Assembly: GCA_963850905.1 (NCBI GenBank) | Contig: CAWKMU010000003.1 | Span: forward strand, 928,001 to 992,000 | DNA length: 64,000 bases | Source of the DNA: an uncultured Gemmatimonadales bacterium | GTDB lineage: Bacteria; Gemmatimonadota; Gemmatimonadetes; Gemmatimonadales; Gemmatimonadaceae | Reading direction: 5' to 3' | Shown: piece by piece, positions 13,550 to 61,242 of the stretch | Layout of the letters: every line of letters begins with the position of its first letter | How positions within the stretch are numbered: position 1 is the first letter of the stretch | The notes under the pieces: generated by a model | Seen by the model: the letters and a program-made list of their open reading frames with translations, nothing else | What the model was told of the DNA's origin: nothing | Databases searched by the model: none | Program-made: the position numbers and the translations under genes

Positions 13550-14539
13550 TTGCCGCCCTACCGCCCTTCCTGGTGGCTTCCCAATCGACATGCCCGCACG
13601 CTCTGGCCGCGGTTCGTCCGGCGCATCCCCGCAGTGGCTACGCGGACCGAGCAATGGGACACGCCGGACGGCGATGTGGTGGAAGTCCATCGGCTGACCG
13701 CGCACTCGCCCGAGGCGCCGCAGCTAGTCGTGCTCCACGGTCTTGAAGGGACTGCGCGGTCGCACTATGCCAGGGGTGCACTGGCTGAGGCGCGCCGACG
13801 TGGTTGGGGCGCGTACTTGCTGTTGTTCCGCTCGTGTGGCGATGCGCCGAACCGAACGCGCCAATTCTACCACTCGGGTGAGACGGGAGACCTGGGGTTC
13901 GTCGTCGAACGTGTCTTGGCAAATCATCCCCGGGCGCCGATAGTGCTGGTGGGCTACTCACTCGGCGGCAATGTCCTCCTCAAGTGGCTCGGCGAGCAGG
14001 GAGATGCCGCATCACCGCGCATTCGTGGAGCCGCTGCCGTGTCGGTGCCGTTCGATCTGGCGCGCGGATCCCGACACATCCAGCGCGGGTTCGCGCGGGT
14101 CTACCAAGCGCATTTTCTCCGCTCGCTGAAGCGGAAAACCTTCGAGAAGTTGTCGCGGTTTCCCGACATTGCCGACCCCGCACGCGTCGCCGGCGTGCGG
14201 ACATTGTACGATTTCGATGACCTGGTGACCGGGCCGTTGCATGGGTTCGCTGGAGCGGACGACTACTACGCGCGATCGAGCGCGCTGAGATTCCTGTCGC
14301 GAATTCGCGTGCCGACGCTGCTCCTGAGTGCCTTCGACGATCCCTTTCTCCCTGCGGCGGTGCTTGATGAAGTCCGCGCCATTGCAGAGCGGACACCAGC
14401 CCTCATGGTGGAATTCGTCTCGCGGGGCGGCCACGTGGGATTCATCAGCGGTCCGCCGTGGCGGCCGTTCTACTGGGGGGAGTGGGTGGTTGGCGAGTTT
14501 CTGGAGGAGAGTGTGAGAACGATAGACGCTGGACGCTGA
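13550..14539 (+). CDS. YheT family alpha/beta hydrolase
   Basis: LHGLEG, YHSGET, GYSLGG nucleophile elbow, DDPF, GGHVGF. Confidence 0.88.
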   Translation: MPPYRPSWWLPNRHARTLWPRFVRRIPAVATRTEQWDTPDGDVVEVHRLTAHSPEAPQLVVLHGLEGTARSHYARGALAEARRRGWGAYLLLFRSCGDAPNRTRQFYHSGETGDLGFVVERVLANHPRAPIVLVGYSLGGNVLLKWLGEQGDAASPRIRGAAAVSVPFDLARGSRHIQRGFARVYQAHFLRSLKRKTFEKLSRFPDIADPARVAGVRTLYDFDDLVTGPLHGFAGADDYYARSSALRFLSRIRVPTLLLSAFDDPFLPAAVLDEVRAIAERTPALMVEFVSRGGHVGFISGPPWRPFYWGEWVVGEFLEESVRTIDAGR

Positions 14540-14619
14540 CGCTGGAGACAAACCTTGAGTGCAGGCTAGTGCACAGTGGCAGGACCTGGAGGGTTGTTCT
14601 CCAGCGTCTAGCGTCTAGC
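14523..14619. repeat. Heptamer-armed inverted-repeat element (TAGACGC arms, ACAAACC core)
   Basis: TAGACGCTGGACGCTGACGCTGGAG-ACAAACC...GTTGT-TCTCCAGCGTCTAGCGTCTA. Confidence 0.8.
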
Positions 14620-15961
14620 CCCTAATCCTCACCACCGCCACGCACCCTCGCGCACCCCGCCTGTCCGCGAGCGTCAGTGTGCCGCCATGCGCCTCGGCGA
14701 TCTGGCGGCACAGGACGAGACCGATACCCGAGCCGTGCGGCTTGGTCGTGTAGAACGGCACGAACAGGTTCGCGGTCCCGGCGAGCCCCGGACCGTCGTC
14801 GACCACGCGGACCTCAGCGCCGTCATCGATTGCGGACCACGAGAGGGTGACGCCGCCACTAGTCTCCAGCGCAGCGTCGGCTGCATTGCGGACGAGGTTG
14901 ATGAGGAGCTGGTCGAGTTGATCGGCGTCCGCCGAGATGGTCAGCGGCGGACCCGGCGACAGGGCAACGCTCAGACGTGTCTCGAGTGTCGCGGTTCGGC
15001 GGACCCACGCCTCGACCTCGACTGGCGCGCGGTTTGGCGGCGGCAGCTTTGCGAGCCGCGCGTACGACGACATGAGTCGCCCCAGTGCCTCAGAGCGTGC
15101 CGCGATGACGCCGAGACCACGAGAGACATCGGCGCCCAGATCGGGCGGCGCGGGATCGCGCGCCACCAACGCACGCAGGGTTTGGGCGATGGATTGGATC
15201 GGCGCCATCGAGTTGTTGATCTCGTGGCTCAGCACACGCACGATGCGCTGCCACGCGACGAGTTGCTCCTCGCGTAGCGTTCGACTGAGATCCGTGAGGA
15301 CCAGGAGCGTGTGAGAGCGGCCGCCTTGTCGGACACGTGTGCGTCGCACGCCCCACCGGCCGCCGCCGCCAGGCCAGGTCACGTCCTCGACACGCGGCAC
15401 CTCGCCGGTCAGGACTGGCGCCAACTGCAGCGCGGCAGCCTCGCGCCCCAGAAGGCGTTCTCCCGGGAGTGCTAGCAGCCGTTCCCCCGCGCGGTTGATC
15501 AGGCGGAGCCGATCCTCCTCGTCGAAGACGAAGATCGCCACGTCGATTTCCGCCATCACCGTCCGCAAGAGAGCCGTCGCTTCCATCTCACCGAGGCGAT
15601 TGACCCGCAAGAGCTCACTGAGCATGTTCGTTTCGAGCAGTGCGAGTCCCAGTGGATCGTCCGGGCGAGCGCCAAAGACGCGAATCGTGTAGTCGCCCTC
15701 CCGCAGCGACGCGACAGCGTTGGCGAGAGTCTGGAGCGGGCGCACGACCGTCGACCGCACGAGCCACGCGCCGCCGATCCAGCATGCGCCGAGCGCCCCG
15801 AGTGTCACCCAGCGTACCGCGGGCGCGACCCCCGCTCGCTGTAATGCGATTGCCACGACGACCATGCTCGGCAGCGCGGGCACGAGCGCCAGTGCGACGA
15901 CGCGCTGCTCATGGCGCACCCGATCCCAGAGCCGCAGGCGTGGGCTGTCCGTCTCGTTCAT
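14615..15961 (-). CDS. Sensor histidine kinase (2 TM, HAMP/PAS-like, HATPase)
   Basis: VLSHEINNS H-box, NLVRNA, DDGPG, FYTTKPHGSGIGL. Confidence 0.9.
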   Translation of the reverse strand: MNETDSPRLRLWDRVRHEQRVVALALVPALPSMVVVAIALQRAGVAPAVRWVTLGALGACWIGGAWLVRSTVVRPLQTLANAVASLREGDYTIRVFGARPDDPLGLALLETNMLSELLRVNRLGEMEATALLRTVMAEIDVAIFVFDEEDRLRLINRAGERLLALPGERLLGREAAALQLAPVLTGEVPRVEDVTWPGGGGRWGVRRTRVRQGGRSHTLLVLTDLSRTLREEQLVAWQRIVRVLSHEINNSMAPIQSIAQTLRALVARDPAPPDLGADVSRGLGVIAARSEALGRLMSSYARLAKLPPPNRAPVEVEAWVRRTATLETRLSVALSPGPPLTISADADQLDQLLINLVRNAADAALETSGGVTLSWSAIDDGAEVRVVDDGPGLAGTANLFVPFYTTKPHGSGIGLVLCRQIAEAHGGTLTLADRRGARGCVAVVRIRG

Positions 15962-16008
15962 GACGCCCGATCGCTATTGGTCACAAAGGAGAAGGTAGTG
16001 CGGAGCAG

Positions 16009-16034
16009 GAACGGCGGGGTCACCCCCGCCGTTC
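16009..16034. terminator. GC-rich hairpin between regulator and kinase genes
   Basis: GAACGGCGGGG-TCAC-CCCCGCCGTTC inverted repeat; no adjacent U-tract. Confidence 0.45.
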
Positions 16035-25363: not shown

Positions 25364-25540
25364 GCCCGATACTGCTTTGCAAGCGTTTGCCGCCGAAGGC
25401 TTTATGCAACGGCAGCGGCCGCTCCAGCGGGTCGATTTTGTGCGTGACCGGGACCCCTCGTCCCAAAATCGGACAGGGTGGGCTGGGACGTTGGAGGGGC
25501 GGGTGACGCATGACGGGCGACGGCAACTACGCCTGCCATT

Positions 25541-25682
25541 CGGCGGGTAGGGGCGACGCAATGCGTCGCCCGTCGTTGGCGAACGGCGAACGCCGCCCGC
25601 GCGTGCATTTTGGGGCGTCCGACGGATTGTGGGTCGCATCGCCGCACCGTAGGGCGACGCACTGCGTCGCCCCTACCCGCCG
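25541..25682. repeat. Inverted pair of family-A GTAG REPs (REPIN-like)
   Basis: CGGCGGGTAGGGGCGACGCAATGCGTCGCCC (25541-25571) and reverse copy GGGCGACGCACTGCGTCGCCCCTACCCGCCG (25652-25682). Confidence 0.85.
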
Positions 25683-25782
25683 TTGTTAAGGGTCGTGGCC
25701 GTTTCCACCCGGCCCTATCTAGCGGCTGGGGCCGGGCTGGGGAATCTTTCGCTTCTCACGACAAACACTGGAGCATGAGACC

Positions 25783-26208
25783 ATGCCGACGCGTCGCGCG
25801 ACTGCCGTATGGGAAGGGGGGCTACAGCAGGGCAAGGGGACGGTGAAAACGGAGAGTGGGGCGCTCGACGTGCCATACTCCTTCAGCACGCGCTTTGGAA
25901 CGGTGAAGGGATCGAATCCAGAGGAACTGCTCGCCGCCGCAGAGGCCGCGTGCTACGCAATGGCGTTGAGCGCTGGCCTGGAGCGGGCAGGGACACCGGC
26001 AACGCGCATCGAGGCGGCCAGCTCGTGTACGATTGACAAGGTCGGTGATGCGTTCAAGATCACGACCTTGAAGCTGACGGTGCGCGCGTCCGTACCGGGC
26101 ATTGCGGCAGACGCGTTCCAGAAAGCTGCCCAGACCACGAAGGAGACCTGTCCAGTGTCAGGCGCACTCAAGAGCGTTCCGATCGAATTGGACGCGGCAC
26201 TCGTCTGA
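25783..26208 (+). CDS. osmC: OsmC family peroxiredoxin
   Basis: AVWEGGLQQGKG, YSFSTRF, SNPEELLAAAEAAC, CPVS; GGAG SD. Confidence 0.9.
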   Translation: MPTRRATAVWEGGLQQGKGTVKTESGALDVPYSFSTRFGTVKGSNPEELLAAAEAACYAMALSAGLERAGTPATRIEAASSCTIDKVGDAFKITTLKLTVRASVPGIAADAFQKAAQTTKETCPVSGALKSVPIELDAALV

Positions 26209-26268
26209 GCACACGCGTCGCGGGTCGTCAGTCGCTTTCGCCTTCCCAACATCTCATCGAGGGTCCGA

Positions 26269-26763
26269 ATGAGTCGTCGCATCGTCGGTAGCGTCGTGCT
26301 GTCGCTCGTCGTTGGAGTCGGGTCAGCCCGCGCGCAAACTCCATCGGGCGCGACGCCCGATCAGCAGCTTCTGCAGGGTGTGGCCAATCTCAATCAGGGC
26401 GTCGCGCTCCTCGCACACGAGACGATGCATCGGCCGGGGACGTTCCCGTCCAAGACCGACGCGCAGGGCGTCGATAAGCTGCACGACGATCAAATGGACC
26501 ACATCCACGCCGCACTCGGCATGCTCAACGACGCGTACACGCCGAAGGCGTCGCACGCCGACTCGGCCCGCGCGGCGGCGCTCGGCAAGCAATCAGGTGC
26601 GGCCTACGACAGCGCCTTCCGCGCCAATGTGGTGCAGCTCGATGACCAGGCGATTCAGATGATCGACAAGTACATGTCGCAGCTCACAAACGCCCAGATC
26701 AAGACGATGGCCCAGCGGCTGCGCGACGCGGACGCCGCGGAGGTGAAGAAGCTGGGCGGCTAG
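26269..26763 (+). CDS. Secreted DUF305-like (ferritin-like) protein
   Basis: Signal peptide ending ARAQ; AYDSAF..QAIQMID..IKTMAQRL..AEV pattern. Confidence 0.55.
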   Translation: MSRRIVGSVVLSLVVGVGSARAQTPSGATPDQQLLQGVANLNQGVALLAHETMHRPGTFPSKTDAQGVDKLHDDQMDHIHAALGMLNDAYTPKASHADSARAAALGKQSGAAYDSAFRANVVQLDDQAIQMIDKYMSQLTNAQIKTMAQRLRDADAAEVKKLGG

Positions 26764-27398
26764 TCGCCGAGCCCGTGTTGCAGCGTCGCCGCCTTGCTCC
26801 GCATCACTAGCGCCAACCCTGCGATCACGCACACCAGGATCACTCCCCAAATCACGACCCACTCGGCCGCCGTGGTGGTATGCGCGATCGACATAGCGGC
26901 GGGATTCGCACGCTCGTCTGAGCCGCCACCCATGCCCGGCATACCGGCCATGCCGGTGTCCTTCGCGGAACCCCCGGCGGTGGTAGCCGCCGTCGTGACA
27001 GCGCCCACGACGAGATCGGCACGCGCGGTGACGTCACCGTCCGACGCGATCACGACGAGTGTGTAGGGACCGGCTGGCACGTTCTTCGGCACCATCAGCG
27101 ACATCTGGAACGCGCCCGCAGTGTCCGTATGCACGGCGCCCACGGGGAAGTTGTCCAGTACCCCCCGCAACTCGAGGTTGAGCGCAGAGCTCTTGGGCAG
27201 TTTTTCGCCGCGCACATCGACGGAACCGCCGATGGCCACCTGATGACTCGATACGTGAATAGCTCCCGTTTCGTGCGCCGACGCGGGAGACGTGGGCGAG
27301 AGAACTAGTCCAACGCCGGCTGCGGCGACAGCGGCAACGAGATGGGGAAGGCGCATAGAAGGGCGAGCTGGAGTCGAGGATCGGGAGATGTGAGACAT
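26760..27398 (-). CDS. Hypothetical exported protein with N-terminal His, Met/Gly linker and C-terminal TM anchor
   Basis: Signal peptide ending ASA-HE, Ig-like beta segment, GMAGMPGMG, terminal TM helix; start may be 27356. Confidence 0.65.
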   Translation of the reverse strand: MSHISRSSTPARPSMRLPHLVAAVAAAGVGLVLSPTSPASAHETGAIHVSSHQVAIGGSVDVRGEKLPKSSALNLELRGVLDNFPVGAVHTDTAGAFQMSLMVPKNVPAGPYTLVVIASDGDVTARADLVVGAVTTAATTAGGSAKDTGMAGMPGMGGGSDERANPAAMSIAHTTTAAEWVVIWGVILVCVIAGLALVMRSKAATLQHGLGD

Positions 27399-27491
27399 TG
27401 GAGGTTAGACGCTGGATAACAAACCTCGGGGCGAGCTAAACGCGCCGTGGCTGGCCTTTTGTCTCCAGCGTCCAACGTCTAACGTCTCATC
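27385..27491. repeat. Heptamer-armed inverted-repeat element (TAGACGC-type)
   Basis: GAGATGT GAGACAT TGGAGGT TAGACGC TGGATA-ACAAACC...TTTGT-CTCCAGCGTCCAACGTCTAACGTCTC. Confidence 0.75.
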
Positions 27492-27499
27492 CGTTGCAC

Positions 27500-28558
27500 T
27501 CACATTTTCATTCCAAGATGGGACATCTGCGGGGCGAAGAATCCGTAGATGATGCCGCCGACATAGAAGACGAGAATGAGCAGCGCGAAGGCCGTGACGA
27601 GGCGGGGGCGGGGTCGACCCTCTCGAGGCCGGTCGATGAGCGGCACGAGAAAGAGAAAACCGAATATCACGATGGGAGCGAAGATCATGCCCGTCATCCC
27701 CATGGTGTTTTCGACGACATAGATCCAGAGGAACGGCCAGTACGGTTTGGTGACTTCGTAGCCCGCCACTGCCGGATACCCGATGTGCGGAGGGAACACG
27801 ACCGCGAGGATGCCGGCGAGTCCCACGAGGAGCAGTGCATAGCCCGTGAGTTTGGGCAAGTGCTCGGAGAAGCGGCTCGTCTTCGGCTGCGGCGAATTGA
27901 TGCCGATCATGCGGATGAGCCAGAAGTGCAGCGCGACGAGCGCGAGCAGCAGGATCGGCAACAAGCTCACGTGCGCGCTGTGCATCCGGCTGATGAGGTT
28001 CGTGCTCTGGGCAAAGTCGGGACTCATGGGTGCGCCGAGCGGCCCCGAGATCTTCGCACCCGCCACAGCGTGCGCCAACGCCTCAGCCCCCTCCTCATCC
28101 CCTCGCAGCACGGTGCCGGTGAAAGCCATGGCGAACAGCACAATCGCGAGGGCGACCCCGGCCCACCAAGTCATCTCGCGCGGTTTGACGTAGCTGCGAC
28201 GCCAGAACACCCAGCACAGGTGAAAGAACACAGTCACCAACACAATGCTGGCGCCCCAGTAGTGGAGACCGCGGATCCAGTACCCCAGCGGCACCTTCGT
28301 CATGATGTACACGACGCTGTCGTGCGCAGCGACCGGATCGGGGTTGTAGAACTGGTCCAGCACGATCCCGGTGGCGATGAGCAGCAGGATACCGGCAAGC
28401 GTGAGCCCGCCCAGCATGTAGGCGAGCCGGTTCGCCTCGGGCGCGATCGGGTAGTCGAGCCCCTCGAGCGCGAGACGCTCCCGCGCTACACTGGAGACCG
28501 CATTGGCCGGCGGCGTGCCGGATGTGCGCGTGCCGACGGGCAGCTCGGCGATGGACAA
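27500..28558 (-). CDS. Cytochrome b (QcrB/PetB-like), no Rieske or cytochrome c partner nearby
   Basis: YMLGG, RGLHYWGAS..VFFHL, PREMTWWAG, SAHVSLLP..ALHFWL heme ligands. Confidence 0.85.
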   Translation of the reverse strand: MSIAELPVGTRTSGTPPANAVSSVARERLALEGLDYPIAPEANRLAYMLGGLTLAGILLLIATGIVLDQFYNPDPVAAHDSVVYIMTKVPLGYWIRGLHYWGASIVLVTVFFHLCWVFWRRSYVKPREMTWWAGVALAIVLFAMAFTGTVLRGDEEGAEALAHAVAGAKISGPLGAPMSPDFAQSTNLISRMHSAHVSLLPILLLALVALHFWLIRMIGINSPQPKTSRFSEHLPKLTGYALLLVGLAGILAVVFPPHIGYPAVAGYEVTKPYWPFLWIYVVENTMGMTGMIFAPIVIFGFLFLVPLIDRPREGRPRPRLVTAFALLILVFYVGGIIYGFFAPQMSHLGMKM

Positions 28559-28630
28559 GGTCGCTCCGGATGAAACGGTGGAGCGGAAAAATCTAGTGTC
28601 GGGCGCTTCTCACACGAGAGGTGGAAACGA

Positions 28631-28737
28631 CCGGGTTCCGGGTTCCGGGTTCCGGGTGGCACAAACCGCTAAGGCCAGTCGCAGCGGTGTGACTGGCCTT
28701 TCGATTTTGTTCCGGAACCCGAGACCCGGAACCCGGC
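28631..28737. repeat. Heptamer-armed inverted-repeat element (CCGGGTT arms)
   Basis: (CCGGGTT)x3 CCGGGTGGC-ACAAACC..AAGGCCAGTC/GACTGGCCTT..TTTGT-TCCGGAACCCGAGACCCGGAACCCGG. Confidence 0.85.
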
Positions 28738-28740
28738 CGT

Positions 28741-29361
28741 TCAGACCTTCGTCTCTCCCCCCACCTTCTCCACCTCACTGGCCGCTTTTTCGAGTATCTC
28801 CCGGATGCGGTGCAGCTGCACCGGATCTTTTAGCCGCGTCGCGGTGGCGTAGGTCGCACGAGCAACCGACTTGAACGCCTGATGGACCTCGACCATCTGC
28901 GGTCCGAAAAAGCTCGTCGCAAAGCCGGCAATGCGGTCGAAGATCTCGTCGACGGCACCCTTGTTTGCCTCGAGGTAGGCTCGGCCCTCCGCTGTGATCT
29001 CGTAGATCTTCTTCCCACCCTCCTCCGCGGTCCCATGGGCGTAGCCTAGATCCTCCAGCATCGTGAGCGTCGGATACACCGCGCCCGGGCTGGGCGAGTA
29101 GGCGCCGCCCAACCGATCTTCGAGTGCCTTGATGATCTCATAGCCGTGGCGCGGCTTCTCGCTGAGGAGCTGCAGAATCACGTACTTGAGATCGCCCTGC
29201 TCGAACATGCGCGAGCGGAACCCGCCCCACCGTCCGCCCCCTTTCCCACCAGGTCCGCCCCAGAATCCGGCGCCCCACGGGCCGCCTCCTCCAAAGCCCC
29301 AACCCCACGAGTCCCGACTCCCGCGCGGTGAGCATCCTTGCCGTTCCCAGTCTCTGAACAT
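28741..29361 (-). CDS. PadR family transcriptional regulator with Gly-rich N-terminus
   Basis: GDLKYVIL..PRHGYEIIK..YSPSPGAVYPTL..KKIYEIT; GGAGGGG SD before ATG 29361. Confidence 0.92.
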   Translation of the reverse strand: MFRDWERQGCSPRGSRDSWGWGFGGGGPWGAGFWGGPGGKGGGRWGGFRSRMFEQGDLKYVILQLLSEKPRHGYEIIKALEDRLGGAYSPSPGAVYPTLTMLEDLGYAHGTAEEGGKKIYEITAEGRAYLEANKGAVDEIFDRIAGFATSFFGPQMVEVHQAFKSVARATYATATRLKDPVQLHRIREILEKAASEVEKVGGETKV

Positions 29362-29391
29362 CGCCCGTCCCCTCCGTAAAGTAATTACGTG

Positions 29392-29413
29392 CGATATATC
29401 TTCGATATATCTT
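29392..29413. promoter_or_regulatory. Candidate PadR operator
   Basis: CGATATATCTT x2 tandem, each containing palindrome GATATATC, 30 bp upstream of padR start. Confidence 0.65.
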
Positions 29414-29508
29414 AGGGCCGGCGAAGAGGCATTGCAAGGGTTGGACGCGTCTAACTTCTCACCCCCGCTTTTGGCTATCCTTACTGCCCAACCCCTTACC
29501 CGTACACT

Positions 29509-30438
29509 ATGCGCACCACGCTCGCGGTCATCCTTGCTGTTGTGGCGGGCGGAGCCGTCGCTCGACGCCACGTGCTCGTCACCGAACTCGACGCCGTCCG
29601 ACATGTCGGACCAGCCGCCACGAGCTCGAGTGGCATCGGGACCGTTGCCGCGCTTCCACCATCGGCGGCCAGCGCAGCTGAGCAACTCGCCAAATCACCG
29701 CGGCATCGCGAGTACGTGATGATTCCGACACCCGGCGTGCCGGGCGACAGCATCCGGGCGTGGGTGTTCTATCCACAAGTAAACCACAAGGTGCCCGTGG
29801 TCGTGGTTATCCACGAGATTTTCGGGATGAGTACATGGATCAAAGCGGTCGGTGATCAGATCGCGGCAGATGGCTATATCGCGATCGTCCCCGACCTCAT
29901 TCACCGCAACCTGCCGCCACAGGCCCCGGACACGATGATTCCCGATGAGGGGGTGCGCGCGGTGCGCGCGCTTCAAGCGGCCGACGTCCAACGCGATCTC
30001 GATGCCGCCGCCGCCTACGCCACGCGCCTGCCGAGTGCGCTCCCCGTCTACGCAACGGTCGGATTCTGCTGGGGCGGGGGCACCTCCTTCGCCCACGCCG
30101 TCCACCAGCCCGCGGTCGCCGGCGGTCCCGCACTCAAGGCCACGGTCGTCTACTACGGACCGACTCCGGACTCGACGCAGTTGGGCAGTGCGCGTGATCC
30201 CGTGCTCGGCCTGTATGGCGGCAACGACGCCCGCATCTCATCAACGGTCCCCGGCACGGATTCGGCCATGGAGCGCCTGCACAAGACGTACGCGTTCAAG
30301 ATCTACGACGGCGCCGGTCACGGCTTCCTCCGCGCGCAGGACGACGCCCACGACACGCAGGGGACGGCAAACGCCGACGCCGCGCGCGACGCATGGCCGC
30401 GTACGTTGCAGTGGTTCCACCAATACCTGGGCGCCTGA
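29509..30438 (+). CDS. Dienelactone hydrolase family protein
   Basis: VIHEIFG, GFCWGG, YGGNDARI, GAGHGF. Confidence 0.9.
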   Translation: MRTTLAVILAVVAGGAVARRHVLVTELDAVRHVGPAATSSSGIGTVAALPPSAASAAEQLAKSPRHREYVMIPTPGVPGDSIRAWVFYPQVNHKVPVVVVIHEIFGMSTWIKAVGDQIAADGYIAIVPDLIHRNLPPQAPDTMIPDEGVRAVRALQAADVQRDLDAAAAYATRLPSALPVYATVGFCWGGGTSFAHAVHQPAVAGGPALKATVVYYGPTPDSTQLGSARDPVLGLYGGNDARISSTVPGTDSAMERLHKTYAFKIYDGAGHGFLRAQDDAHDTQGTANADAARDAWPRTLQWFHQYLGA

Positions 30439-30986
30439 TGCGATACGCCTATGCTGCCTCGTTCTTGCTCGGGTTGTTGCTTGGCGTCCGCGCCATGCTG
30501 CACGGCGTGGAACGCCCGGCGAAGTCGCGCTCTCCGCTCGATCCGAACGCGACCTCCGGGCGGCGCTTCGCCCTCAATCTCCCGACCGCCGCCGGGTTCG
30601 CCACAGCGTTTGGATTGACCGGCTACCTCCTCGCGCGACTCACCGGGCTGGGCGTGGCGGTCGATCTGGTGATCGCCTCCGTCGCCGGGGCGGCCGGGGC
30701 CGTCGGGATCCTGCTGCTGATTGCGGCGTGGGCAATTCCCGCAGCGAAGGCAGAGGTGACCGATGAACGGTATCTCATGCAGGGTGCACTCGCCCGCGTG
30801 ATCGGCGTCACCGATCGGGGCGCGTCTGGCACGGTAACCTATGCGTCGGGTGGCGTCTCGTTCACGACCGGCGCGACTGCCCTGGACGGGACTCGTCTGG
30901 AAGTCGGCAGCGAGGTCGTCATCGAACGCATTGAGAATGGGGTGGCGTTCGTCGAGCCATGGGCTCACGTGGAAGCGCGCCTATAG
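30438..30986 (+). CDS. NfeD-like membrane protein
   Basis: 3-4 TM segments plus C-terminal OB-fold-like GSEVVIERIENGVAFVEPW; TGATG coupling. Confidence 0.7.
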   Translation: MRYAYAASFLLGLLLGVRAMLHGVERPAKSRSPLDPNATSGRRFALNLPTAAGFATAFGLTGYLLARLTGLGVAVDLVIASVAGAAGAVGILLLIAAWAIPAAKAEVTDERYLMQGALARVIGVTDRGASGTVTYASGGVSFTTGATALDGTRLEVGSEVVIERIENGVAFVEPWAHVEARL

Positions 30987-31130
30987 ATTGATTGGTGTGC
31001 GGCCGCACCAGCGCGGCACGGCACATGCCGGTGCAGGTGCAGGGCGGCTTGTAGGAGCGAGGCATGTCTCGCCCTCTGCCGCCCGCGTCGTCGGGGGGTG
31101 TTGGATCGGTCGATGCCCCGGGAGGAGCAG

Positions 31131-31427: not shown

Positions 31428-31514
31428 AAGAGATCGGGTGACGGGCGGCGGGCGCTAAAGCGTCCGCCGCCCGCCACACCGTAACCCGTAACCCGGCTCT
31501 TTAGTCCCTCCAGT

Positions 31515-42216: not shown

Positions 42217-42221
42217 AACGA

Positions 42222-42328: not shown

Positions 42329-42460
42329 CCGCGTTGAACATTAGTTTGTAACAGCAACTAATCACACGCCCGCCTATATTCACCCGGACGCGCACGAAGG
42401 CCGGCGCTCCCGCCCTCGTGTCTGGCGTCCCTCGTCCCTCGGCCCCTGGTCCCCCGAGAC

Positions 42461-47286: not shown

Positions 47287-48669
47287 ATGCGCTGGCTTTA
47301 CCAGTTGGCCAGTCGATTGATCGCCGGCGGTACCGTGACGTACGCGCTTCTCGCGTGCGGCAGCAGTAACCATTCGACTACGGGCCCGAGCACCGGCAGT
47401 CTCACCGTCGCCATCACCGCCCCGGCGGGGATCAAGCCGTCGGTGACGGTTTCCGGCCCAAACAGCTATGTGAAGGTGTTGTCGGCGACTACCACGCTCA
47501 CCGATCTGCCGACTGGCACCTATACCGTCGCGGGCGCCAAGGTCCCCACCACCGCGCCGATCGTGAGCATCCTGTACACACCGACGATCACCGGTAGTCC
47601 GGTGCCGGTGTCTGCGAACGTGACGGTCGAAGTGAAGGTGAGCTACGCTCAGGCACCCGGCTCGGGTCACCTATGGGCGACAAATGCGACAACTGATTTC
47701 TCGGTCGTGGCCTTCGACTCCTCGGTTCTTGGCGTGAGTGGGACTCCAGCGCCAGCTATCACGATCTCGCCGAACAACGGTTCGCTGTTTCTGCCAGAGT
47801 ACGCGGCGTTTGACACGGCCGGCGTGATGTGGGTGCTCAACCAGGACACTCTCGTGGGCTTCAGTCCGGCGCAAATCGGGACGAGCGGTGCGCCGTCGCC
47901 TGCTATCACGATCCAACCGGTCGACAGCTCGCTCAACCTGGCATTCTCGATGGCGTTCGACGCATCCGGGTACCTGTGGATCGTGAACGTAGGCAACGCC
48001 AATGTGGTCGCTTACAGCCCTCAGCAACTGGCCGCCAGTGGGGCCCCGGCACCAGCGATCAAGCTGACGTCAACCATGGCATTCTTTCAGCCGGAAGGCA
48101 TCGCCTTCGATGCACACGGCAATATGTGGGTGAGCAGCTGGACCGGTTCCATCCCGCACGTCGATACGCTGCCCGGCAACCTGCAAGAGTTCACGCCGAG
48201 TCAAATCTCCAAGGGTGGCGCACAGACTCCCGCCGTCACTCTCACAGGTCCGGGCCTTCAGTTCGTATCGTCGATCGCGTTCGACGTCACCGGGAATCTT
48301 TGGCTCACCAACGACGCGGACACGATCGCCGAGTACACGGCCGCCCAACTTGCCGCGGGCGGTGCGCAGACACCCAATGTCATCATCCTCGACGGCGCCA
48401 CACCCTGCATATTTCCGAACCAGGGACCTCCGCCCTTTTGCAACGGTCCGGACGGGCTGGCGTTCGACAACAGCAGCAATTTGTGGGTGGCCCATGGTGT
48501 GGCTACGAGCTCCGAGACAATCGTTCAGTACACAGCGAGCCAGTTGACCGCGAGTGGCTCACCGACCCCGGCGGTCAGCCTCACGACAAATGGTACGTCG
48601 ATCATCGGGGCAGTCGGGCTGACGTTCTACCCGCACGCGGCAGGGTTGCCGATCTACCCGCATCCCTGA
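47287..48669 (+). CDS. NHL/Vgb-like beta-propeller lipoprotein (paralog of upstream gene)
   Basis: Lipobox LLAC; TGSL.VAI..P.G..PSVTVSGP; AFD..GNLW repeats; PHA.GLP end shared with paralog. Confidence 0.82.
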   Translation: MRWLYQLASRLIAGGTVTYALLACGSSNHSTTGPSTGSLTVAITAPAGIKPSVTVSGPNSYVKVLSATTTLTDLPTGTYTVAGAKVPTTAPIVSILYTPTITGSPVPVSANVTVEVKVSYAQAPGSGHLWATNATTDFSVVAFDSSVLGVSGTPAPAITISPNNGSLFLPEYAAFDTAGVMWVLNQDTLVGFSPAQIGTSGAPSPAITIQPVDSSLNLAFSMAFDASGYLWIVNVGNANVVAYSPQQLAASGAPAPAIKLTSTMAFFQPEGIAFDAHGNMWVSSWTGSIPHVDTLPGNLQEFTPSQISKGGAQTPAVTLTGPGLQFVSSIAFDVTGNLWLTNDADTIAEYTAAQLAAGGAQTPNVIILDGATPCIFPNQGPPPFCNGPDGLAFDNSSNLWVAHGVATSSETIVQYTASQLTASGSPTPAVSLTTNGTSIIGAVGLTFYPHAAGLPIYPHP

Positions 48670-48779
48670 GGGTTGCCGATCCGCTGACCCCGCGTCACGG
48701 CTGTGCTCACCGGATCGTATCGCGTCCCGGTGGTGCTTCGTCTTTCCCACGACCATTATTCGCCGAGGATTGGACTGCC

Positions 48780-49424: not shown

Positions 49425-50582
49425 ATGCGCCTGACCAGGGTTCTCCACATTGTGGTGTGCATAACGCTGTGCGGATGTGGAGAAGCGCCGGGTGCGCATT
49501 CGCATCGGCTGCGCAGTGACCGAGCTCCAGCGGCCGTTGGCCCGCAGTTCAAGGTCGCGCTCCTCACGCCAGGGCCCATCACGGACCAGGCGTGGAACGC
49601 GGCGGCCTATCAGGGGCTGCTGCGGATCAAGGACAGTCTCGCGGCGGACGTGAGTAACGTGCAGACCAAGACGCCGGCCGAATTCGACGAGAATTTTCGG
49701 CAGTACGGGGCCGAGGCGTATAACGTCGTCTTTGCGAACGGCTTTGAGTATCAAGACGCGGTCAGGCGCGTCGCTCCGGACTATCCGCGCACGGTGTTCA
49801 TCACCACGTCGGGCGACAAGACCGGCGCGAACTGGGCCGGCATCGACTTTCAGTTCGAAGACGGGGCCTACATCGCCGGGATTCTGGCAGGCATGATGAC
49901 GAAGACCAATGTCATCGGCACGATTGGTGGCACCGAGCTGCCGCCCGTGCGGCGCGGGTTTGCCGGCTTCGTCGCGGGGGCGCGCTCAGTCAACTCGGGT
50001 ATTCGAGTCTTGAGCTCGTACGTCGGGAACTGGGACGATGCCAGCGCGGCGAAAGAGCAGGCGCTCGCGCAGATCAATCAGGGTGCCGACGTCATCTTCC
50101 AGAACGCGGACGCCGCTGGATTGGGCGTGTTTCAGGCGGCCAAGGACTCGAAGGGCGTATGGGTCATAGGCTCCAACTCAGATCAGAACAGTGTCGCGCC
50201 GGCCGTCACGCTGGGCAGCGTCGTGATCGACTTGCCGCACGCGCTGTTGACGGTCGCCGCAGAGATTCGCGACGGACTCTTCATTCCCCGCGTGATCAAG
50301 CTCGGCGTGCAGCAGCAAGTGATCAAGCTCGTGATTAACCCGGCGATCGGGCCCGGTATCCCCTCTGCGGCGCGTGTCGCGGTGGACTCCGTGCAACGGA
50401 GTTTCGTGATGGGTCACACCCCGCACATCGATCTCGGACCGGACACGACGGTTGCCGCAACGGCGCCCGCGGCCGACACTGGTACGCGCGGAGCCGCCGT
50501 GCACGACTCGGCGGTGCCGGCGAGTGCCGGAGCGCAACAACCAAGCGCGCAGACGCACGACTCGGCGGCGGTCAAGCAGTGA
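49425..50582 (+). CDS. BMP family (purine nucleoside) ABC substrate-binding lipoprotein
   Basis: LCGC lipobox; PGPITDQAWN, GADVIFQNADAAGLGVF. Confidence 0.88.
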   Translation: MRLTRVLHIVVCITLCGCGEAPGAHSHRLRSDRAPAAVGPQFKVALLTPGPITDQAWNAAAYQGLLRIKDSLAADVSNVQTKTPAEFDENFRQYGAEAYNVVFANGFEYQDAVRRVAPDYPRTVFITTSGDKTGANWAGIDFQFEDGAYIAGILAGMMTKTNVIGTIGGTELPPVRRGFAGFVAGARSVNSGIRVLSSYVGNWDDASAAKEQALAQINQGADVIFQNADAAGLGVFQAAKDSKGVWVIGSNSDQNSVAPAVTLGSVVIDLPHALLTVAAEIRDGLFIPRVIKLGVQQQVIKLVINPAIGPGIPSAARVAVDSVQRSFVMGHTPHIDLGPDTTVAATAPAADTGTRGAAVHDSAVPASAGAQQPSAQTHDSAAVKQ

Positions 50583-50608
50583 CCCCTGACCCCTAGTCTC
50601 TCGCACTT

Positions 50609-51382: not shown

Positions 51383-51441
51383 GAGCCGGGGGGTGGGTGA
51401 CGGTCCGGGTGACGGGAACTGCAACGTCCTCGGCGAGACCC

Positions 51442-51582
51442 GGGCGGGCTGAAGCCCGCCCCTACATGTTGCTGCGGGCGGCGTCAAATCAGGGTTCGTC
51501 GACCGGCACCTGCAATCGTCGGCACAGCGCTCTGGAGCGTCACCATCCACACCGACATGTAGGGGCGGCCTTCAGGCCGCCC
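51442..51582. repeat. Inverted pair of family-B GTAG REPs, nested inside GGGTGAC/GTCACC heptamer arms (~51395-51644)
   Basis: GGGCGGGCTGAAGCCCGCCCCTAC (51442-51465) and GTAGGGGCGGCCTTCAGGCCGCCC (51559-51582). Confidence 0.8.
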
Positions 51583-51656
51583 AGCGTTGTCGTCCCGATT
51601 GATGCGTAGTTCCCGTTACCCCTCACCCGTCACCTGTCGCCCGGCCTTTTGAAGCC

Positions 51657-53189
51657 ATGAACCATCGCGAGAGCGTCGCCGACGTGCTCTCATTGCAACA
51701 CATTGTCAAACGCTTCCGCGGCGTGCTTGCACTAGATGGTGCGAGCATCGTCGTCCGGCGCGGCACCGTGCACGCGTTGCTCGGCGAAAATGGCGCGGGG
51801 AAGACCACCCTCATGCGCGTCGCGTACGGGATGCTGCGACCGGACGCTGGACGGGTGCTTGTCGATGGACCCCAACGCCGGTTCCGTTCGAGCGCCAATG
51901 CGATCCGGGTTGGGATCGGCATGGTGCATCAGCACTACGCGCTCGTGCCGGCGATGACGGTCACGGAAAATGTGGCGCTCGGCGGGCGGGGTCGGTACGA
52001 CGCGCGTGCGAGTGCCGCGCGCGTACGTGCACTCGCCAACGACACGGGCCTGGCACTCGATCCGGACGCTCGGGTGGACGACCTTTCAGTCGAGGCGCAG
52101 CAGCGCGTCGAGATCGTCAAGGCACTCGCCCGCGACGTGCGCACGCTCATACTCGACGAGCCAACCGCCGTGCTTGCGCCGTCTACGGCTGCCACACTGC
52201 TGGCGTGGCTCCGGCAATTTGCAGACGCTGGGCACGCCGTCGTGCTCATCACGCACAAGTTGCGCGAGGCACTGGGCGTCGCCGACGACATCACGGTCCT
52301 GCGCCACGGTCGCACCGTTCTCGCGACGGCTGCCCGATCGACAACCGAAGCAGATCTCGCGAGCGCCATGTTGGGGACGCCGGCGGGCGGCGGGCGACTC
52401 GCATCCGAGCTCCCGGGTCGGCCGCCCGGAGAGCCCAACGATTCGACTCGCCCAGCGCTTGTCGGTGCCCAGCGTCGGCTGGCACCGGAGGACGCATCGG
52501 CGGCCGTCGTGAGGGCCGACCATCTATCGGTCGCGGACACTCGCGGCACAACGCGGATCACGGACGCCTCCTTCGCGATCCGGGCCGGCGAGATCGTCGG
52601 GATTGCCGCTGTCGAAGGCCAGGGTCAGCATGAGCTGTTGCGCGCGATCGCCGGCCGGCTCCCCATCGCGAGCGGCCGACTCGTCGCACCGGAGAACGTC
52701 GGCTTCATTCCGGAGGATCGGCAACGGGACGGGTTGATCCTCGATTTCGCCATCTTTGAGAACGTCGGGTTGCGCGATGTCGGCACTCGCCGCGGCTTGA
52801 TGCCCTGGCGCGCAGTGCGCGAGCGGACGCGTGGGGACTTGGCCGACTACGATATTCGCGCCGAGAGCGGCGGCACCCCCGTGGGCACGCTGTCGGGGGG
52901 GAACCAGCAAAAGGTCGTGCTCGCGCGCGAGCTGTCTGGCGCCGACCGGGGTGCCGCGGTCGCCCTCGTCGCCGAGAACCCAACGCGGGGCCTCGATATC
53001 CAGGCGACGGCGGCCGTGCACCTGCGTCTTCGCGCGGCCCGCAACGGTGGGACGGCGATCGCGCTGTACGCCAGCGACCTCGACGAGGTGCTGTCGCTCG
53101 CCGACCGCGTCCTGGTCGTCAGCCAGGGGACCGTGCGCGAGGTGGCCGGCGATCGAGAGGCCATCGGCCGCGCAATGTTGGGACTGTAG
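51657..53189 (+). CDS. Nucleoside/sugar ABC transporter ATP-binding protein (duplicated NBD)
   Basis: GENGAGKTT, LILDEPTAVL, ITHKL, IPEDR, LSGGNQQK, PTRGLD. Confidence 0.92.
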   Translation: MNHRESVADVLSLQHIVKRFRGVLALDGASIVVRRGTVHALLGENGAGKTTLMRVAYGMLRPDAGRVLVDGPQRRFRSSANAIRVGIGMVHQHYALVPAMTVTENVALGGRGRYDARASAARVRALANDTGLALDPDARVDDLSVEAQQRVEIVKALARDVRTLILDEPTAVLAPSTAATLLAWLRQFADAGHAVVLITHKLREALGVADDITVLRHGRTVLATAARSTTEADLASAMLGTPAGGGRLASELPGRPPGEPNDSTRPALVGAQRRLAPEDASAAVVRADHLSVADTRGTTRITDASFAIRAGEIVGIAAVEGQGQHELLRAIAGRLPIASGRLVAPENVGFIPEDRQRDGLILDFAIFENVGLRDVGTRRGLMPWRAVRERTRGDLADYDIRAESGGTPVGTLSGGNQQKVVLARELSGADRGAAVALVAENPTRGLDIQATAAVHLRLRAARNGGTAIALYASDLDEVLSLADRVLVVSQGTVREVAGDREAIGRAMLGL

Positions 53190-53210
53190 GGGCGACGCAA
53201 TGCGTCGCCC
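53186..53210 (+). repeat. GTAG-type REP palindrome, family A
   Basis: GTAGGGGCGACGCAATGCGTCGCCC; its TAG is the stop codon of the ATPase. Confidence 0.85.
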
Positions 53211-53316
53211 TCCATCCCGCGCGCCCAATGCACCGGCGTCGGCGTGGGTGCATTGCCGTGGATCCGGCACGATGTGGTCGATGGCCACCCAACCGTCATC
53301 CGGGTCCGAGTGCAGT

Positions 53317-53354
53317 TCGAGGGCCTGTCACGGTACACTGTGACAGGCCCTCGA
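53317..53354. terminator. Long hairpin between convergent ATPase and susD (likely terminator)
   Basis: TCGAGGGCCTGTCAC-GGTACACT-GTGACAGGCCCTCGA 15-bp stem, followed by GGTTCTTCT. Confidence 0.65.
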
Positions 53355-53400
53355 GGTTCTTCTCCTAACGTCCAACGTCTAGCGTCTAACCCCTAGCCGT

Positions 53401-54942
53401 TCACGTTCCCAACGGGCTGCACACCTGCCCGAGGTTGCGTGCTTCACACTCGGTGTACGGAATCGGCATCCGTGACGGAACTACTGGCGGCGGGAATCCC
53501 GTGTAGTTCGCCGGGTTCCAACCAGGCTCGATCGTGCCGAGCTGGCCGAAACGACGCGCGTCGATCCATCGGGCGCCTTGCTCCCAAAGTAGAGAGTAGC
53601 GGCGGTTGTACAGGAGTTCCGTCGTCAGCCCCGCTTGGGTCATCGGCCCCGAGTATGCCGGGAGGCCACCGACGCCTTGGCGGACGCTGTTTAAGTCGGC
53701 TATCGCGTCGGCAAAGTCGCCCGTGCCGATTTCCGCCTCTGCCTTGAGCAGCGCCAACTCTTCGTTCTTGATGATCGGAATCTGCGCTGCCGTATTCACC
53801 GAGCCGTTGTTCAAATAGATCGTGAACTTCAACCAGCCTGGCAGCTGCGGGATGCCGCCCAGAATCTGCGGCGTCGCGCCAGTGACGGTCGAGATCGACA
53901 CGATCTTGTTGAGCGCACGCTGGTCGAGCACTCCGGGCTTCTGCAGCTGCGCATCCGTGAGGTTGAACGTGTCCGCGAAGAACGTCACGCCGGTGATCGG
54001 GTCAGACAGTGTATTCGGCGAGTCACCAGGGTTGCTGCTGTAGTCGAACAAGACCGAAGGCTGACCAGCACCAAAACTGTTGGCCACGTAGAACGACTTC
54101 TTGATATCGGCCAGCGCAGCGGTGTAATAACCCGGTGCAGCCCCCGGACTGCCGCCGCCCTTCGCATCGGTGATCGCCGCCGTTGCCCGGAGGCACAGCG
54201 CCTTGGCCTCTAACGCTTCGACAAACTGCGCGAAGCCCGCGGGAGTCGACGCAACAGTGCTAAAGCCCGGCGGCATGGGGAATGTGAAGTTCGTCGACGA
54301 GCCGCTCGCGAGATTGGCAAGTGATGAGTCGAGCGTCGCCAGAATCGTCGCGTACACTGCGTCTTCGTTCACGAAGTCCGGAACTGGTGCGTTGGCGGGA
54401 CGGTCCACATCGACCGGCGCGCCCAGATCGGCGTGGGTCTCGACGACGTACATGAACATCAACGCCTTGAGCGCCTGCGCGACACCTATGGCCAGCGACT
54501 GTTGCGCGGTCGACATGTCGGGGGCCTTGGGCGCTGCGTCGATGACGATGTTGGCGTCACGGATCGCGGCGTAGTACGCGCCCCATTCCCCGGCGGCATC
54601 CCCGCCACCGGAGAGCGGTCCGTAATAGGGTTCGGAGTAATCCGGCTGGTTGTTGCCAGACAGATTGATGCCTTCGCGCCCCATCGAGCCAACAAACCAA
54701 ATGAGCGATGGCGTGTTGGCGCGCGCACGGGCGAACGCACCCGTGACCGCCGCGTCGACGCTGATCATTGTGGGGGCGCCCGTCAGCCCCTGGAGCGTAG
54801 GGCCGTTGGGATCGCTGATGTTGAAGTTGTAACACGCAGTCGCTCCAACTCCTGCCGCGAGGGACGCGGCCAGAACGAGGCGCGGGGTGAGACGCAGGCC
54901 GGCTCTCTCGATGCCGCGCGTCCGAATTTCATTGCGCGACAT
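53401..54942 (-). CDS. RagB/SusD family outer-membrane lipoprotein
   Basis: Lipobox ATAC; PIIKNEELALLKAEA, LNSVR, RRYSLLWEQGARWIDARR. Confidence 0.88.
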   Translation of the reverse strand: MSRNEIRTRGIERAGLRLTPRLVLAASLAAGVGATACYNFNISDPNGPTLQGLTGAPTMISVDAAVTGAFARARANTPSLIWFVGSMGREGINLSGNNQPDYSEPYYGPLSGGGDAAGEWGAYYAAIRDANIVIDAAPKAPDMSTAQQSLAIGVAQALKALMFMYVVETHADLGAPVDVDRPANAPVPDFVNEDAVYATILATLDSSLANLASGSSTNFTFPMPPGFSTVASTPAGFAQFVEALEAKALCLRATAAITDAKGGGSPGAAPGYYTAALADIKKSFYVANSFGAGQPSVLFDYSSNPGDSPNTLSDPITGVTFFADTFNLTDAQLQKPGVLDQRALNKIVSISTVTGATPQILGGIPQLPGWLKFTIYLNNGSVNTAAQIPIIKNEELALLKAEAEIGTGDFADAIADLNSVRQGVGGLPAYSGPMTQAGLTTELLYNRRYSLLWEQGARWIDARRFGQLGTIEPGWNPANYTGFPPPVVPSRMPIPYTECEARNLGQVCSPLGT

Positions 54943-60105: not shown

Positions 60106-60117
60106 AAGGCTAGACGT

Positions 60118-61080
60118 CTAACACCCCACGTATGCACTACTCCATCGCGCCCGCCACTGATGCGGCGCGGTTCGCTGGATGAGGGTGTACGAGTTGCCGT
60201 CCCCATAGTCGCGTGCGAGTACGATCGTCGGAACGGCGCGCGGGCCGCGACCCAGGAGCACTCCGGCAAGGACTTCATCGGTTTCCACGTCATCCTCGGG
60301 GCCGGAGGTACGCTCGGAGTACACGGCCACGTACGGCGGAGGACCGCGATTCGGTCCTGGTGCGGTATCGCGCTCCATGACGATCAGAATGTGCTCCTCC
60401 TCCGGGTTCGCCTCCTGGTTGAGCCGCCGGACCACTTCCGCCGCGATCACGGTGTCCCCGGAGGGGAGGGTAAATCGGTGCGCGTCGCGCAGGGAAAACG
60501 GGACACCACGAAATGACTGCGCGGTGTCGTTGGCCAGGGCCGACGCGACACGCGCAACGTCCGCCGCACGCTTGGCCGAGTCCGCCTCGCTCAGTACGGG
60601 CACGGAATCCATCGGCAACGCCGTCGCATGGCCAACGGTGAAGGCAACCGACCAGTCCGGCGGGGGCCCATCCGTCGTGTTGACGTGCGCCGTCGGCCAC
60701 GTGGTGCAGCTACCGGAGAAATTGCCGTCAGCCTGCGCGGACAGCTTTGCCGTCCCCACCCGTCCGTGCCGCGCGAACAAGTCGACATCGGGATGGCCGG
60801 TCAGAACCGTGTCCACGGCCGGCGCCTCGACGACCGTGCTATCGGTAAACCGTGGCATGACGTCGATCGCTTCCGTCGGATTCGCACCGGCAACAAACAG
60901 GTTTCGTCCAGCGATCGTGTCGTTCCAACGGACGGTCGTGCGACCGGCTGCCGCGGGCGCCGGCGAGTTTCCTCCCCCAGGCGTCGCGGTCGACGATTGC
61001 GGCCCGGAACGTGTCCGCTCACAGGCCGTCGCCGCACACGCGACGATCGCGAAAAGGACAACAGCATGCCGGCTTCGCAT
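60118..61080 (-). CDS. Hypothetical lipoprotein
   Basis: 320 aa ORF with ATAC lipobox and Pro/Ala linker. Confidence 0.65.
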   Translation of the reverse strand: MRSRHAVVLFAIVACAATACERTRSGPQSSTATPGGGNSPAPAAAGRTTVRWNDTIAGRNLFVAGANPTEAIDVMPRFTDSTVVEAPAVDTVLTGHPDVDLFARHGRVGTAKLSAQADGNFSGSCTTWPTAHVNTTDGPPPDWSVAFTVGHATALPMDSVPVLSEADSAKRAADVARVASALANDTAQSFRGVPFSLRDAHRFTLPSGDTVIAAEVVRRLNQEANPEEEHILIVMERDTAPGPNRGPPPYVAVYSERTSGPEDDVETDEVLAGVLLGRGPRAVPTIVLARDYGDGNSYTLIQRTAPHQWRARWSSAYVGC

Positions 61081-61115
61081 GGGGAATTAAGCTACGAAAC
61101 TACTGGGGTCAGAGG

Positions 61116-61242
61116 TTAGATGCTAAGAAGCTAGACGCTGGACGCTAGACGCTGGACGTTAGAAACAAATCTTGACAGCCAGCTAAATGCAGCGTGTCCG
61201 GCCCTCGAGGTGTGTTCCAGCGTCCAGCGTCCGGCCTCTAGC
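61116..61242. repeat. Heptamer-armed inverted-repeat element (TAGACGC/TGGACGC arms)
   Basis: TAGATGC TAAGAAGC TAGACGC TGGACGC TAGACGC TGGACGT TAGAA-ACAAATC...TGTG-TTCCAGCGTCCAGCGTCC. Confidence 0.85.

Follow-up and report, generated by a model that had tools for sequence, protein, structure and literature searches.

Heptamer-armed palindromes around a shared hairpin core at gene ends in a Gemmatimonadaceae genome

A stretch of 64,000 nucleotides from an uncultured Gemmatimonadales bacterium (Gemmatimonadaceae; assembly GCA_963850905.1, contig CAWKMU010000003.1, positions 928,001 to 992,000; hereafter the window) carries inverted-repeat elements at its gene junctions, in which tandem arrays of a 7-nt unit, the arms, stand as mirror images on both sides of a short core. 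They belong to a lineage-restricted family of ~200 gene-less palindromes at stop codons, and we lean, with somewhat better than even confidence, towards the reading that the copies have been spread by DNA-level copying to the ends of genes, in many cases on top of an element already there. What has been observed of the family comprises its copy number, its position, its hairpin shape, its turnover between related genomes, its genome-specific arm units and one amplified subfamily that bears a repetitive extragenic palindromic (REP) sequence.

The source genome (G000; 4.49 Mb, 82% complete; C3 denotes coordinates on its contig) contains 443 period-7 arrays, compared with 11, 47, 7, 50 and 7 arrays of period 5, 6, 8, 9 and 10, and therefore the arrays cannot be attributed to chance. 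Inverted pairs of such arrays lying ≤3 kb apart number 210, and 108 of them enclose 50–69 nt. A profile hidden Markov model (HMM), built from the interiors of 90 inverted pairs and used with a cut-off of E ≤ 1, has given 197 core matches in this genome and none in the reversed genome, which served as the control. Matching arm units stand on both sides of 116 of the 197 cores, compared with 12 of 5000 random positions, and no core (0/197) lies between two different well-formed arms. The genome-wide search proposed in a first-pass annotation of the window, which had been made from the letters alone, has thus found the core enriched beside heptamer arrays. The core had been described there as a variable spacer; it is instead a hairpin. 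Read from one end, the complete palindrome has three to six heptamers and AACAAAC, then the stem GGCCAG/CTGGCC with a short middle that is complementary to itself, and finally GTTTGTT followed by the mirrored arm; GGCCAG/CTGGCC is the most invariant part, and ACAAAC pairs with the GTTTGT end. Among 60 chosen cores from 11 genomes of the genus, base pairs have changed on both sides at 13 of 16 positions, and 87.8% of the cells are able to pair, compared with 72.6% in shuffles and 27–48% when the sides are slid. These paired changes do not prove a function at the RNA level, because the cores have been picked with a palindrome profile and template switching on DNA gives the same signal.

Five arm families surround the core in the source genome (144 pairs): A (TRGACGY) with 59 pairs, B (AGGGGTC) with 55, C with 24, E (GGGTGAC) with 4 and D (CCGGGTT) with 2. 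A sixth family, F (AGAAAGK), forms 30 pairs whose interiors differ from the core. Further units have been found in the related genomes G001 and G002 (TTCGACG, TAGGGGC, TAGGGAC, TAGTGAC, GGGATCC and TGGTGGT), which brings the overall number to ten or more, and an outer AACGGC/GCCGTT end is common to families B and C (37/110 and 17/48 ends). The arms had initially been regarded as interchangeable, which is borne out by family swaps at orthologous junctions but only in part, as core and arm are partly linked: the nearest core shares its arm family in 57 of 83 cases, compared with ~46% expected from the class sizes.

Nearly all cores (193/197) lie between called genes. The occupancy of spacers of ≥90 nt is 79/326 for convergent, 102/1246 for co-directional and 12/516 for divergent gene pairs (chi-square p 2e-26), and an arm ends ≤12 nt from a stop codon in 130 of 186 cases, compared with ≤12 nt from a start in 15 of 102. 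The elements rewrite the ends of genes, i.e., their last codons and stops, as in mnmG, and their GC stem is flanked by A-rich and T-rich sides. Position and shape are terminator-like, so that a terminator role is probably a part of the explanation.

The relatives compared comprise ~0.8 Mb of G004 (92% identity in flanking genes) and 0.5 Mb of G001 (84%), together with shorter stretches of G002, G003 and G005–G009. Arm calling by regular expression over 543 junctions has been too strict, leaving many elements as halves, and the turnover counts are therefore taken from a comparison of 297 orthologous junctions of the source genome and G004. A core is present in at least one of the two genomes at 62 of these 297 junctions, with the same arm family at 22, a different one at 10 and a core in one genome only at 30, a class that includes degenerate copies under the HMM cut-off; the remaining 235 have no core in either genome. 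At C3:742681, 760550, 608266 and 615163, family A elements of both G004 and G001 are matched between the same genes by B or C elements in the source genome, and these begin at or near the stop codon. The empty-site comparison with close relatives, likewise suggested at the outset, has thus shown elements that come and go and that change their arm family between the same genes; since whole elements are exchanged or absent at orthologous junctions, they are neither positionally fixed nor plain terminators alone. Given this turnover, the change of arm family and the enrichment of the core beside the arms, neither of the two outcomes that the first-pass annotation had named as fatal to its proposal, an unenriched core or a set of fixed terminators, describes the family.

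Junctions that carry family A in both the source genome and G004 number 18, and the cores are reciprocal best matches at just 4 of them, despite the 92% identity of the flanks. C-type arm units make up 90 of 128 units at the shared family A junctions in the source genome and 10/152 in G004; in G001, a third unit accounts for 26 of 45 at 7 shared sites. Context-dependent mutation or motif avoidance has been ruled out as the origin of these shifts by the rate of the same C>T change in genes (26/556) and by GACGC, which is not depleted. Genome-specific units, together with orthologous cores at 4 of 18 sites, indicate that the elements are homogenised within a genome much faster than their flanks diverge. 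An unusual core of one G004 site reappears at a second G004 site, where the core of the source genome differs. By eye, no flanking direct repeat of the kind expected of a target-site duplication has been seen in 14 filled/empty alignments or 23 three-way views. The inverted arms amount to terminal inverted repeats, as in MITEs (miniature inverted-repeat transposable elements), and the fixed ends of a MITE are missing, the ends here being ragged and, in many cases, starting from a stop codon.

One subfamily of 43 copies combines a diagnostic core with a single GTAG REP that follows it, within arms of B, C, E, A or F, and 42 of the 43 lie on one strand regardless of gene direction. A stricter pattern finds this combination 13 times in 800 kb of the source genome, never in 780 kb of G004 and once in 500 kb of G001. 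The REP variant concerned, with 92 copies in the source genome and 5 in the G004 stretch, flanks an uninterrupted open reading frame of a REP-associated Y1 transposase (RAYT) at C3:704.4–705.0 kb, which lies in an array of ~150-bp REP units (C3:703.7–705.3k) and which a PF01797 search has missed; it has been found by tblastn with the RAYT of G004 (56% identity). A second RAYT-like gene at C3:875.1–875.5k (L005) is flanked by a different GTAG-type REP, doublets of which lie inside several heptamer-armed elements, e.g., at window positions 51395–51645. No RAYT is flanked by arms or core. Mixed left and right arms have been found in 2 of 9 callable core-plus-REP copies and in none of 83 plain ones. 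The plain elements have no REP and the subfamily has a single internal one, so that the inverted GTAG-REP doublet that forms the ends of a REPIN (a hairpin-forming REP doublet) is not found in either. Along C3, GTAG REPs on the two strands number ~125+/6− at 0–1.0 Mb, 8+/15− at 1.0–2.2 Mb and 54+/11− beyond; the second strand switch lies near 2.2 Mb, while the GC skew stays positive to ~3.0 Mb, which may reflect an inversion or a misjoin.

The core is abundant in four of ten genomes of the genus. A looser pattern has 38–74 matches on both strands in G000, G001, G002 and G004 and 1–3 in six sister genomes, and period-7 arrays occur at 12–27 per 100 kb in the element-rich group and at 0–3 in three sisters. 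Among nine sister-genome cores scored by the profile, eight are arm-less, the exception being a G007 core with a family F array on its left; one of the arm-less cores stands at a site shared with the source genome. The strict core pattern, which finds 8 loci in the source genome, has given no match in 150 other genomes of the class, a sample that holds no further members of the genus. Rare arm-less cores in sisters and abundance only in array-rich genomes suggest that the core probably goes back to an old hairpin at gene ends in the genus and became amplified after acquiring arms.

All seven elements first recognised in the window have been found again at gene junctions with inverted period-7 arrays, and each of the seven folds into a long hairpin (z = −3.0 to −11.4 against 200 shuffles). 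Five of their cores had been read as starting with ACAAACC, which is true of four (14548, 27419, 28661 and 38763); the fifth, at 40817, reads ACTAACC, and its TAA at 40819–40821 is the stop codon of mnmG/gidA. The core HMM matches five of the seven, those at 14548 and 42255 being too degenerate for the cut-off, and further members or remnants that had been overlooked lie at 53318, 51395, 35295, 12514, 40909 and 50580. The features of the window are as follows, none having a strand assigned:

14523–14620, family A (TRGACGY) element: left arm 14523–14546, degenerate core 14547–14599, right arm 14600–14620
27385–27486, family A element: degenerate left arm, core 27418–27463, right arm 27464–27486; 14 nt from the cytochrome b stop
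28631–28741, family D (CCGGGTT) element: arms 28631–28657 and 28712–28736, core 28661–28710; outer GCCGTT abuts the PadR stop
38731–38852, family E (GGGTGAC) element: arms 38735–38762 and 38817–38852, core 38762–38816; starts at the stop of a TonB receptor (TAA-CGGC)
40785–40904, family B (AGGGGTC) element: right arm 40867–40899, outer GCCGTT
40909–40927, leftover family A right arm outside the family B element
42222–42330, family B element, degenerate, located ahead of parA in a divergent spacer; hairpin z −3.0
61117–61240, family A element: left arm 61117–61163, core 61165–61215, right arm from 61216; adjoins the polA stop
53186–53401, overlooked member: core 53318–53361, family A right arm 53365–53397, GTAG-REP-derived sequence in place of the left arm
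51395–51645, overlooked member: family E arms enclosing a doublet of the second GTAG-type REP, not the core
35290–35400, degenerate family F element (AGAAAGK arms, other interior), a separate family
12514–12541, lone family A left arm that overlaps a stop codon and is absent in five relatives
50580–50594, lone family B right-arm remnant that carries the stop of a bmp-like gene

Both arms of the 14523 element carry stops of convergent genes, namely TGA at 14537–14539 of a hydrolase and TAG at 14615–14617 (−) of a histidine kinase; the element has TTCGACG arms in G001 and is missing at the matching place in G004. The 27385 element has other arm units in G004 and G001, and G002 does not have it. 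Family D at 28631 corresponds to family B in G004, to a junction without arms in G001 and to other arms with a REP in G002, and family E at 38731 to family B in both G004 and G001. The left arm at 40785 is translated as the final codons of MnmG, which stops with the TAA at the start of the core; the same junction has arms of family A in G004 and in G001, and the family A arm left over at 40909 is likely a remnant of an element that the family B element has replaced. F-type elements stand at the 42222 junction in G001 and G002, and the arms of the 61117 site are fused in G002, with the core missing. The junction at 53186, where the source genome holds only REP-derived remnants (53186–53317), is occupied in G004 by a RAYT gene together with a REP array (L043:8600–10600) and in G002 by a core with TAGGGGC arms; the distant G007 has an arm-less core in the neighbourhood. 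In G004 and G001, the 51395 junction carries a core-containing element of family A; it is empty in G002, G005 and G009. A contig from a public sequencing run, possibly of the source sample itself, matches the 42222 element letter for letter (X1 record 8, 0 differences), and together with the occurrence of the same family in separately assembled relatives this exact match shows that the element is not an assembly artefact; this check covered 32 of 485 pieces, among which 42222 was the only element covered. A public contig (X4) that omits 27416–27463, the core, has been discounted, as its short side has just 21 letters with 88% likeness.

How such a family may have arisen and spread can be put together as follows. 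An old arm-less gene-end hairpin would have become enclosed by inverted heptamer arms like those that flank genes of four-helix-bundle proteins (TIGR02436/PF05635). The resulting long palindrome would likely extrude on single-stranded DNA and then be nicked or broken; palindromes are cleaved by SbcCD, and quasi-palindromes undergo correction. Repair would likely use a second copy elsewhere in the genome as its template (ectopic conversion), and a template switch inside the hairpin would reproduce the incoming arm in mirror image on the opposite side, which would explain both the always-matching arms and the convergence of each genome on its own unit. For the subfamily with a captured GTAG REP, the resident RAYT transposase has likely provided a further means of movement. 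Copies would likely be retained where they serve as 3′-end hairpins, be it as terminators or as exonuclease barriers, or leave such hairpins undisturbed, and the bias for convergent spacers would follow from such tolerance or usefulness; deletion of the interior would leave arm-to-arm scars. The original suggestion of a non-autonomous mobile element is supported in this respect by enrichment, turnover and the change of arm family, and is qualified by the terminator-like position and shape and by the search for an autonomous partner, in which no copy has been found that encloses an open reading frame together with this core. Transposases have not been found inside A–E arms among the long pairs of the source genome, as far as its 82% completeness allows, and the IS5 copies of G004 are insertions into arms: an IS5-type element has twice entered family A left arms (orthologous to C3:909682 and C3:1023569), with a TTAG duplication by eye. 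A GxxExxY/PF13366 partner has not been found in the source genome.

Several points weigh against spread by copying. All steps after the first enclosure by arms are inferred from genome comparison, and no breakage, conversion or transposition event has been seen. Conversion from another copy does not easily explain a first arrival without homology, or the replacement of family A by family B with its different arms; the one-sided invasion with microhomology that would be needed is visible by eye at one or two sites only. The direction of gain or loss has been resolved at few sites, and at several empty sites the left and right arms are joined to each other, the core being missing; these are likely deletion scars and hence losses. 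The strand bias of the REPs tracks GC skew at C3 0–1.0 Mb and in G004, and does not do so at C3 2.2–3.0 Mb. Genes were called with a simple caller of our own, and the source genome is 82% complete. With regard to the 3′-end role, a terminator scan of 26000–43500 has called three of five elements, at 10 sites in all compared with 8.2 expected, which is no enrichment, and the T-rich core end is itself paired within the long stem. A structured RNA, also among the early suggestions, receives weak strand-specific support, as G·T exceeds A·C on the transcribed strand significantly in only one of six zones (39 vs 19), and finds none in Rfam 15, in which no family matches the window at gathering score.

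Among the alternatives, fixed bidirectional intrinsic terminators, whose heptamer runs have grown by slippage and been mirrored by template switching without any movement, would account for the stop-adjacent position, the bias for convergent spacers, the GC stem between A-rich and T-rich sides with its compensatory changes and the arm-less cores at gene ends in sister species. The likeness to the E. coli rrnB terminator is loose (mean local score 19.9, compared with 15.1 for mirrored shuffles), and homology has been rejected, as the core HMM does not match it. Whole elements that are swapped or absent at orthologous junctions and the scarcity of orthologous cores speak against this explanation, as does the core-plus-REP module, amplified in a single lineage on a preferred strand whatever the direction of transcription; moreover, local slippage cannot yield one genome-wide unit per species. 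As a full explanation it is largely refuted and accordingly quite improbable. A similarly poor standing has the proposal that a resident RAYT mobilises the whole family as giant REPIN-like hairpins: two RAYT-like genes are present in the source genome, many elements contain REPs, and the amplified subfamily has the same REP variant as the RAYT and reaches its highest density within ~300 kb of that gene, but most copies, including all plain A–E elements, have no GTAG-REP, loop variants of plain cores show no strand bias, and the commonest family of G004 (A) is mostly free of REPs. Least credible of all, and in our view very improbable, are arms kept by selection as regulators, either as binding sites of host proteins whose specificity the units follow or as formers of G-quadruplexes. 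The units are genome-specific, the G-rich B and C arms with their GGGG tracts resemble G-quadruplex-forming Xanthomonas repeats (PMC4692102), and Geobacter pairs have been annotated as putative regulator sites (PMC2700814); yet five unrelated arm families share one genome, the commonest of them (A, 59/144 pairs) has no G-tracts, and the families replace one another at the same gene.

It is somewhat more conceivable, though still unlikely, that the elements are non-autonomous miniatures of a heptamer-armed cassette of the four-helix-bundle gene, whose protein would be needed in trans for their spread or exchange. Period-7 arrays have been seen by eye on both sides of 16 of 29 such loci in relatives, and of 80 loci retrieved from many phyla, 74 could be scored and 37 have inverted period-7 arms, compared with 13 of 220 swapped-flank controls. 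Each of the four element-rich genomes has one to four of these genes, and at one junction G001 (L023) has an intact gene between family A arms where the source genome (C3:2817426) has a gene-less family A element. The interior of the latter does not align with the cassette, however, and the core is absent from all 109 four-helix loci. The four genes of the source genome all lie behind family F elements at tRNA-Ile fragments, none within A–E arms, and three look truncated or broken; the gene is also present in the element-poor G006 and G009, and no reverse transcriptase (PF00078) has been found in five genomes, two of them >90% complete. We know of no catalytic activity of the four-helix-bundle protein. 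Its only solved relative, XCC0516 (PDB 2GSC), is listed as uncharacterized. Outside the window, at C3:13.5k, 34.8k, 37.3k, 46.2k and 63.7k (L001–L004), a tRNA-Ile 3′ fragment, a small hairpin, a family F element and a four-helix gene occur together, with one gene intact. A bolder and equally doubtful idea is that the inverted heptamer arms are docking ends of an undescribed gene-end cassette-exchange system, in which a trans-acting factor, the four-helix protein or another partner, would rewrite both arms to the current unit and swap the cargo (core, REP or small gene). If this were true, elements would spread by a new route that needs no transposase, no target duplication and no reverse transcriptase, and the bacterial period-7 excess would be explained.

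With regard to its genomic setting, the window probably lies close to the replication origin, because it contains mnmG/gidA, a D12-class adenine methyltransferase and parA (38854–43585) as well as polA (from 61246), and because the GC skew flips near C3 1.0 Mb; core density is highest at C3 0.75–1.0 Mb (39 per 250 kb). A ~200-bp repeat at 25500–25710 has many copies in G000, G004 and G001, and a tandem duplication of 27 bp (2.1 copies) lies at the end of an open reading frame at 48626–48681. The core is absent at the end of the rRNA operon in the four genomes examined, where family F right arms sit instead behind the 5S rRNA terminator; family F elements also follow other tRNAs, and between such elements, at C3:2004271–2004575, lies a tRNA-Asn(GTT) whose anticodon arm has a 232-nt insert that, by eye, resembles a group I intron (found in the intron mode of ARAGORN).

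The genus offers a natural experiment in which one core, at least ten arm units and hundreds of sites in four species are found, with near-absence in six sisters. Site-by-site replacement and homogenisation of arms indicate that heptamer repeats can be copied modules under concerted evolution, rather than products of local slippage or G-quadruplex motifs, and the family thereby provides a testable handle on why 7-base repeats are common in bacteria. Elhai and colleagues reportedly described, in 2008, tiny mobile repeats associated with the short tandemly repeated repetitive (STRR) sequences of cyanobacteria. The STRRs (cited in PMC4692102), to which the first-pass annotation had pointed, share heptamer tandem arrays with the present elements; the nearest published precedent is instead formed by inverted heptamer pairs of Xanthomonas and Geobacter. 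The excess of heptamer repeats in bacteria has long been noted as a puzzle, for which G-quadruplexes or slippage have been proposed (PMC4692102), and the TAACTGA repeats of Beggiatoaceae are nearly all direct (PMC4679880). A literature search that covered few subscription journals has found no multi-arm family with a shared core, no site replacement of heptamer elements and no heptamer arms of four-helix genes; the supplements of PMC2700814 and PMC4692102 may show conserved interiors.

Intrinsic terminators resemble the elements in the GC stem between A-rich and T-rich tracts just behind stops, whereas here the stem sits in a 100-nt palindrome that is multicopy and exchanged between loci. The four-helix-bundle cassettes have the same arm architecture, and one G001 cassette even shares the family A unit and the junction, but A–E elements of the source genome contain no gene, and the cassette loci lack the core. 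REPINs, which form the functional analogue, are likewise extragenic, hairpin-forming and non-autonomous, with lineage-specific bursts (Bertels and Rainey, 2011, PMC3116915; Di Nocera et al., 2013, PMC3733652), and the present genome has genuine GTAG REPs, with REPs nested in elements, as well as RAYT genes; the ends, however, are tandem heptamer arrays instead of REP doublets, and the GTAG tag is missing from most copies. That inverted heptamer pairs occur near stops is already known. In Geobacter metallireducens, several classes of 7–8-mer tandem arrays are paired on opposite strands, species-specific and hit by insertion sequences (Aklujkar et al., 2009, PMC2700814), as are the family A arms by the IS5-type element; those arrays, whose spacing varies, have been annotated as putative sites of global regulators, and the available part of that paper describes neither a cross-class core nor site turnover. 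The Xanthomonas GGGAATC and Nostoc GGGGA(C/T)T repeats form intergenic arrays of ~four units, in many instances arranged in inverted pairs (70 and 75 cases), which lie ≤50 bp from or overlap stop codons, are under-represented between divergent genes and mostly have the G-rich strand first (Rehm et al., 2015, PMC4692102). The present elements share with the Xanthomonas and Geobacter type the intergenic period-7 arrays, the inverted pairs at stops and the low number in divergent spacers. Those of Xanthomonas and Nostoc have one unit per genome, with 90% of the repeats located between the same genes in two species, and the accessible text of that study describes no conserved interior or mobility; here, in contrast, at least five arm families per genome, the commonest (A) predicted to be unable to form a G-quadruplex, and at least ten units over four species surround one hairpin core and replace one another.

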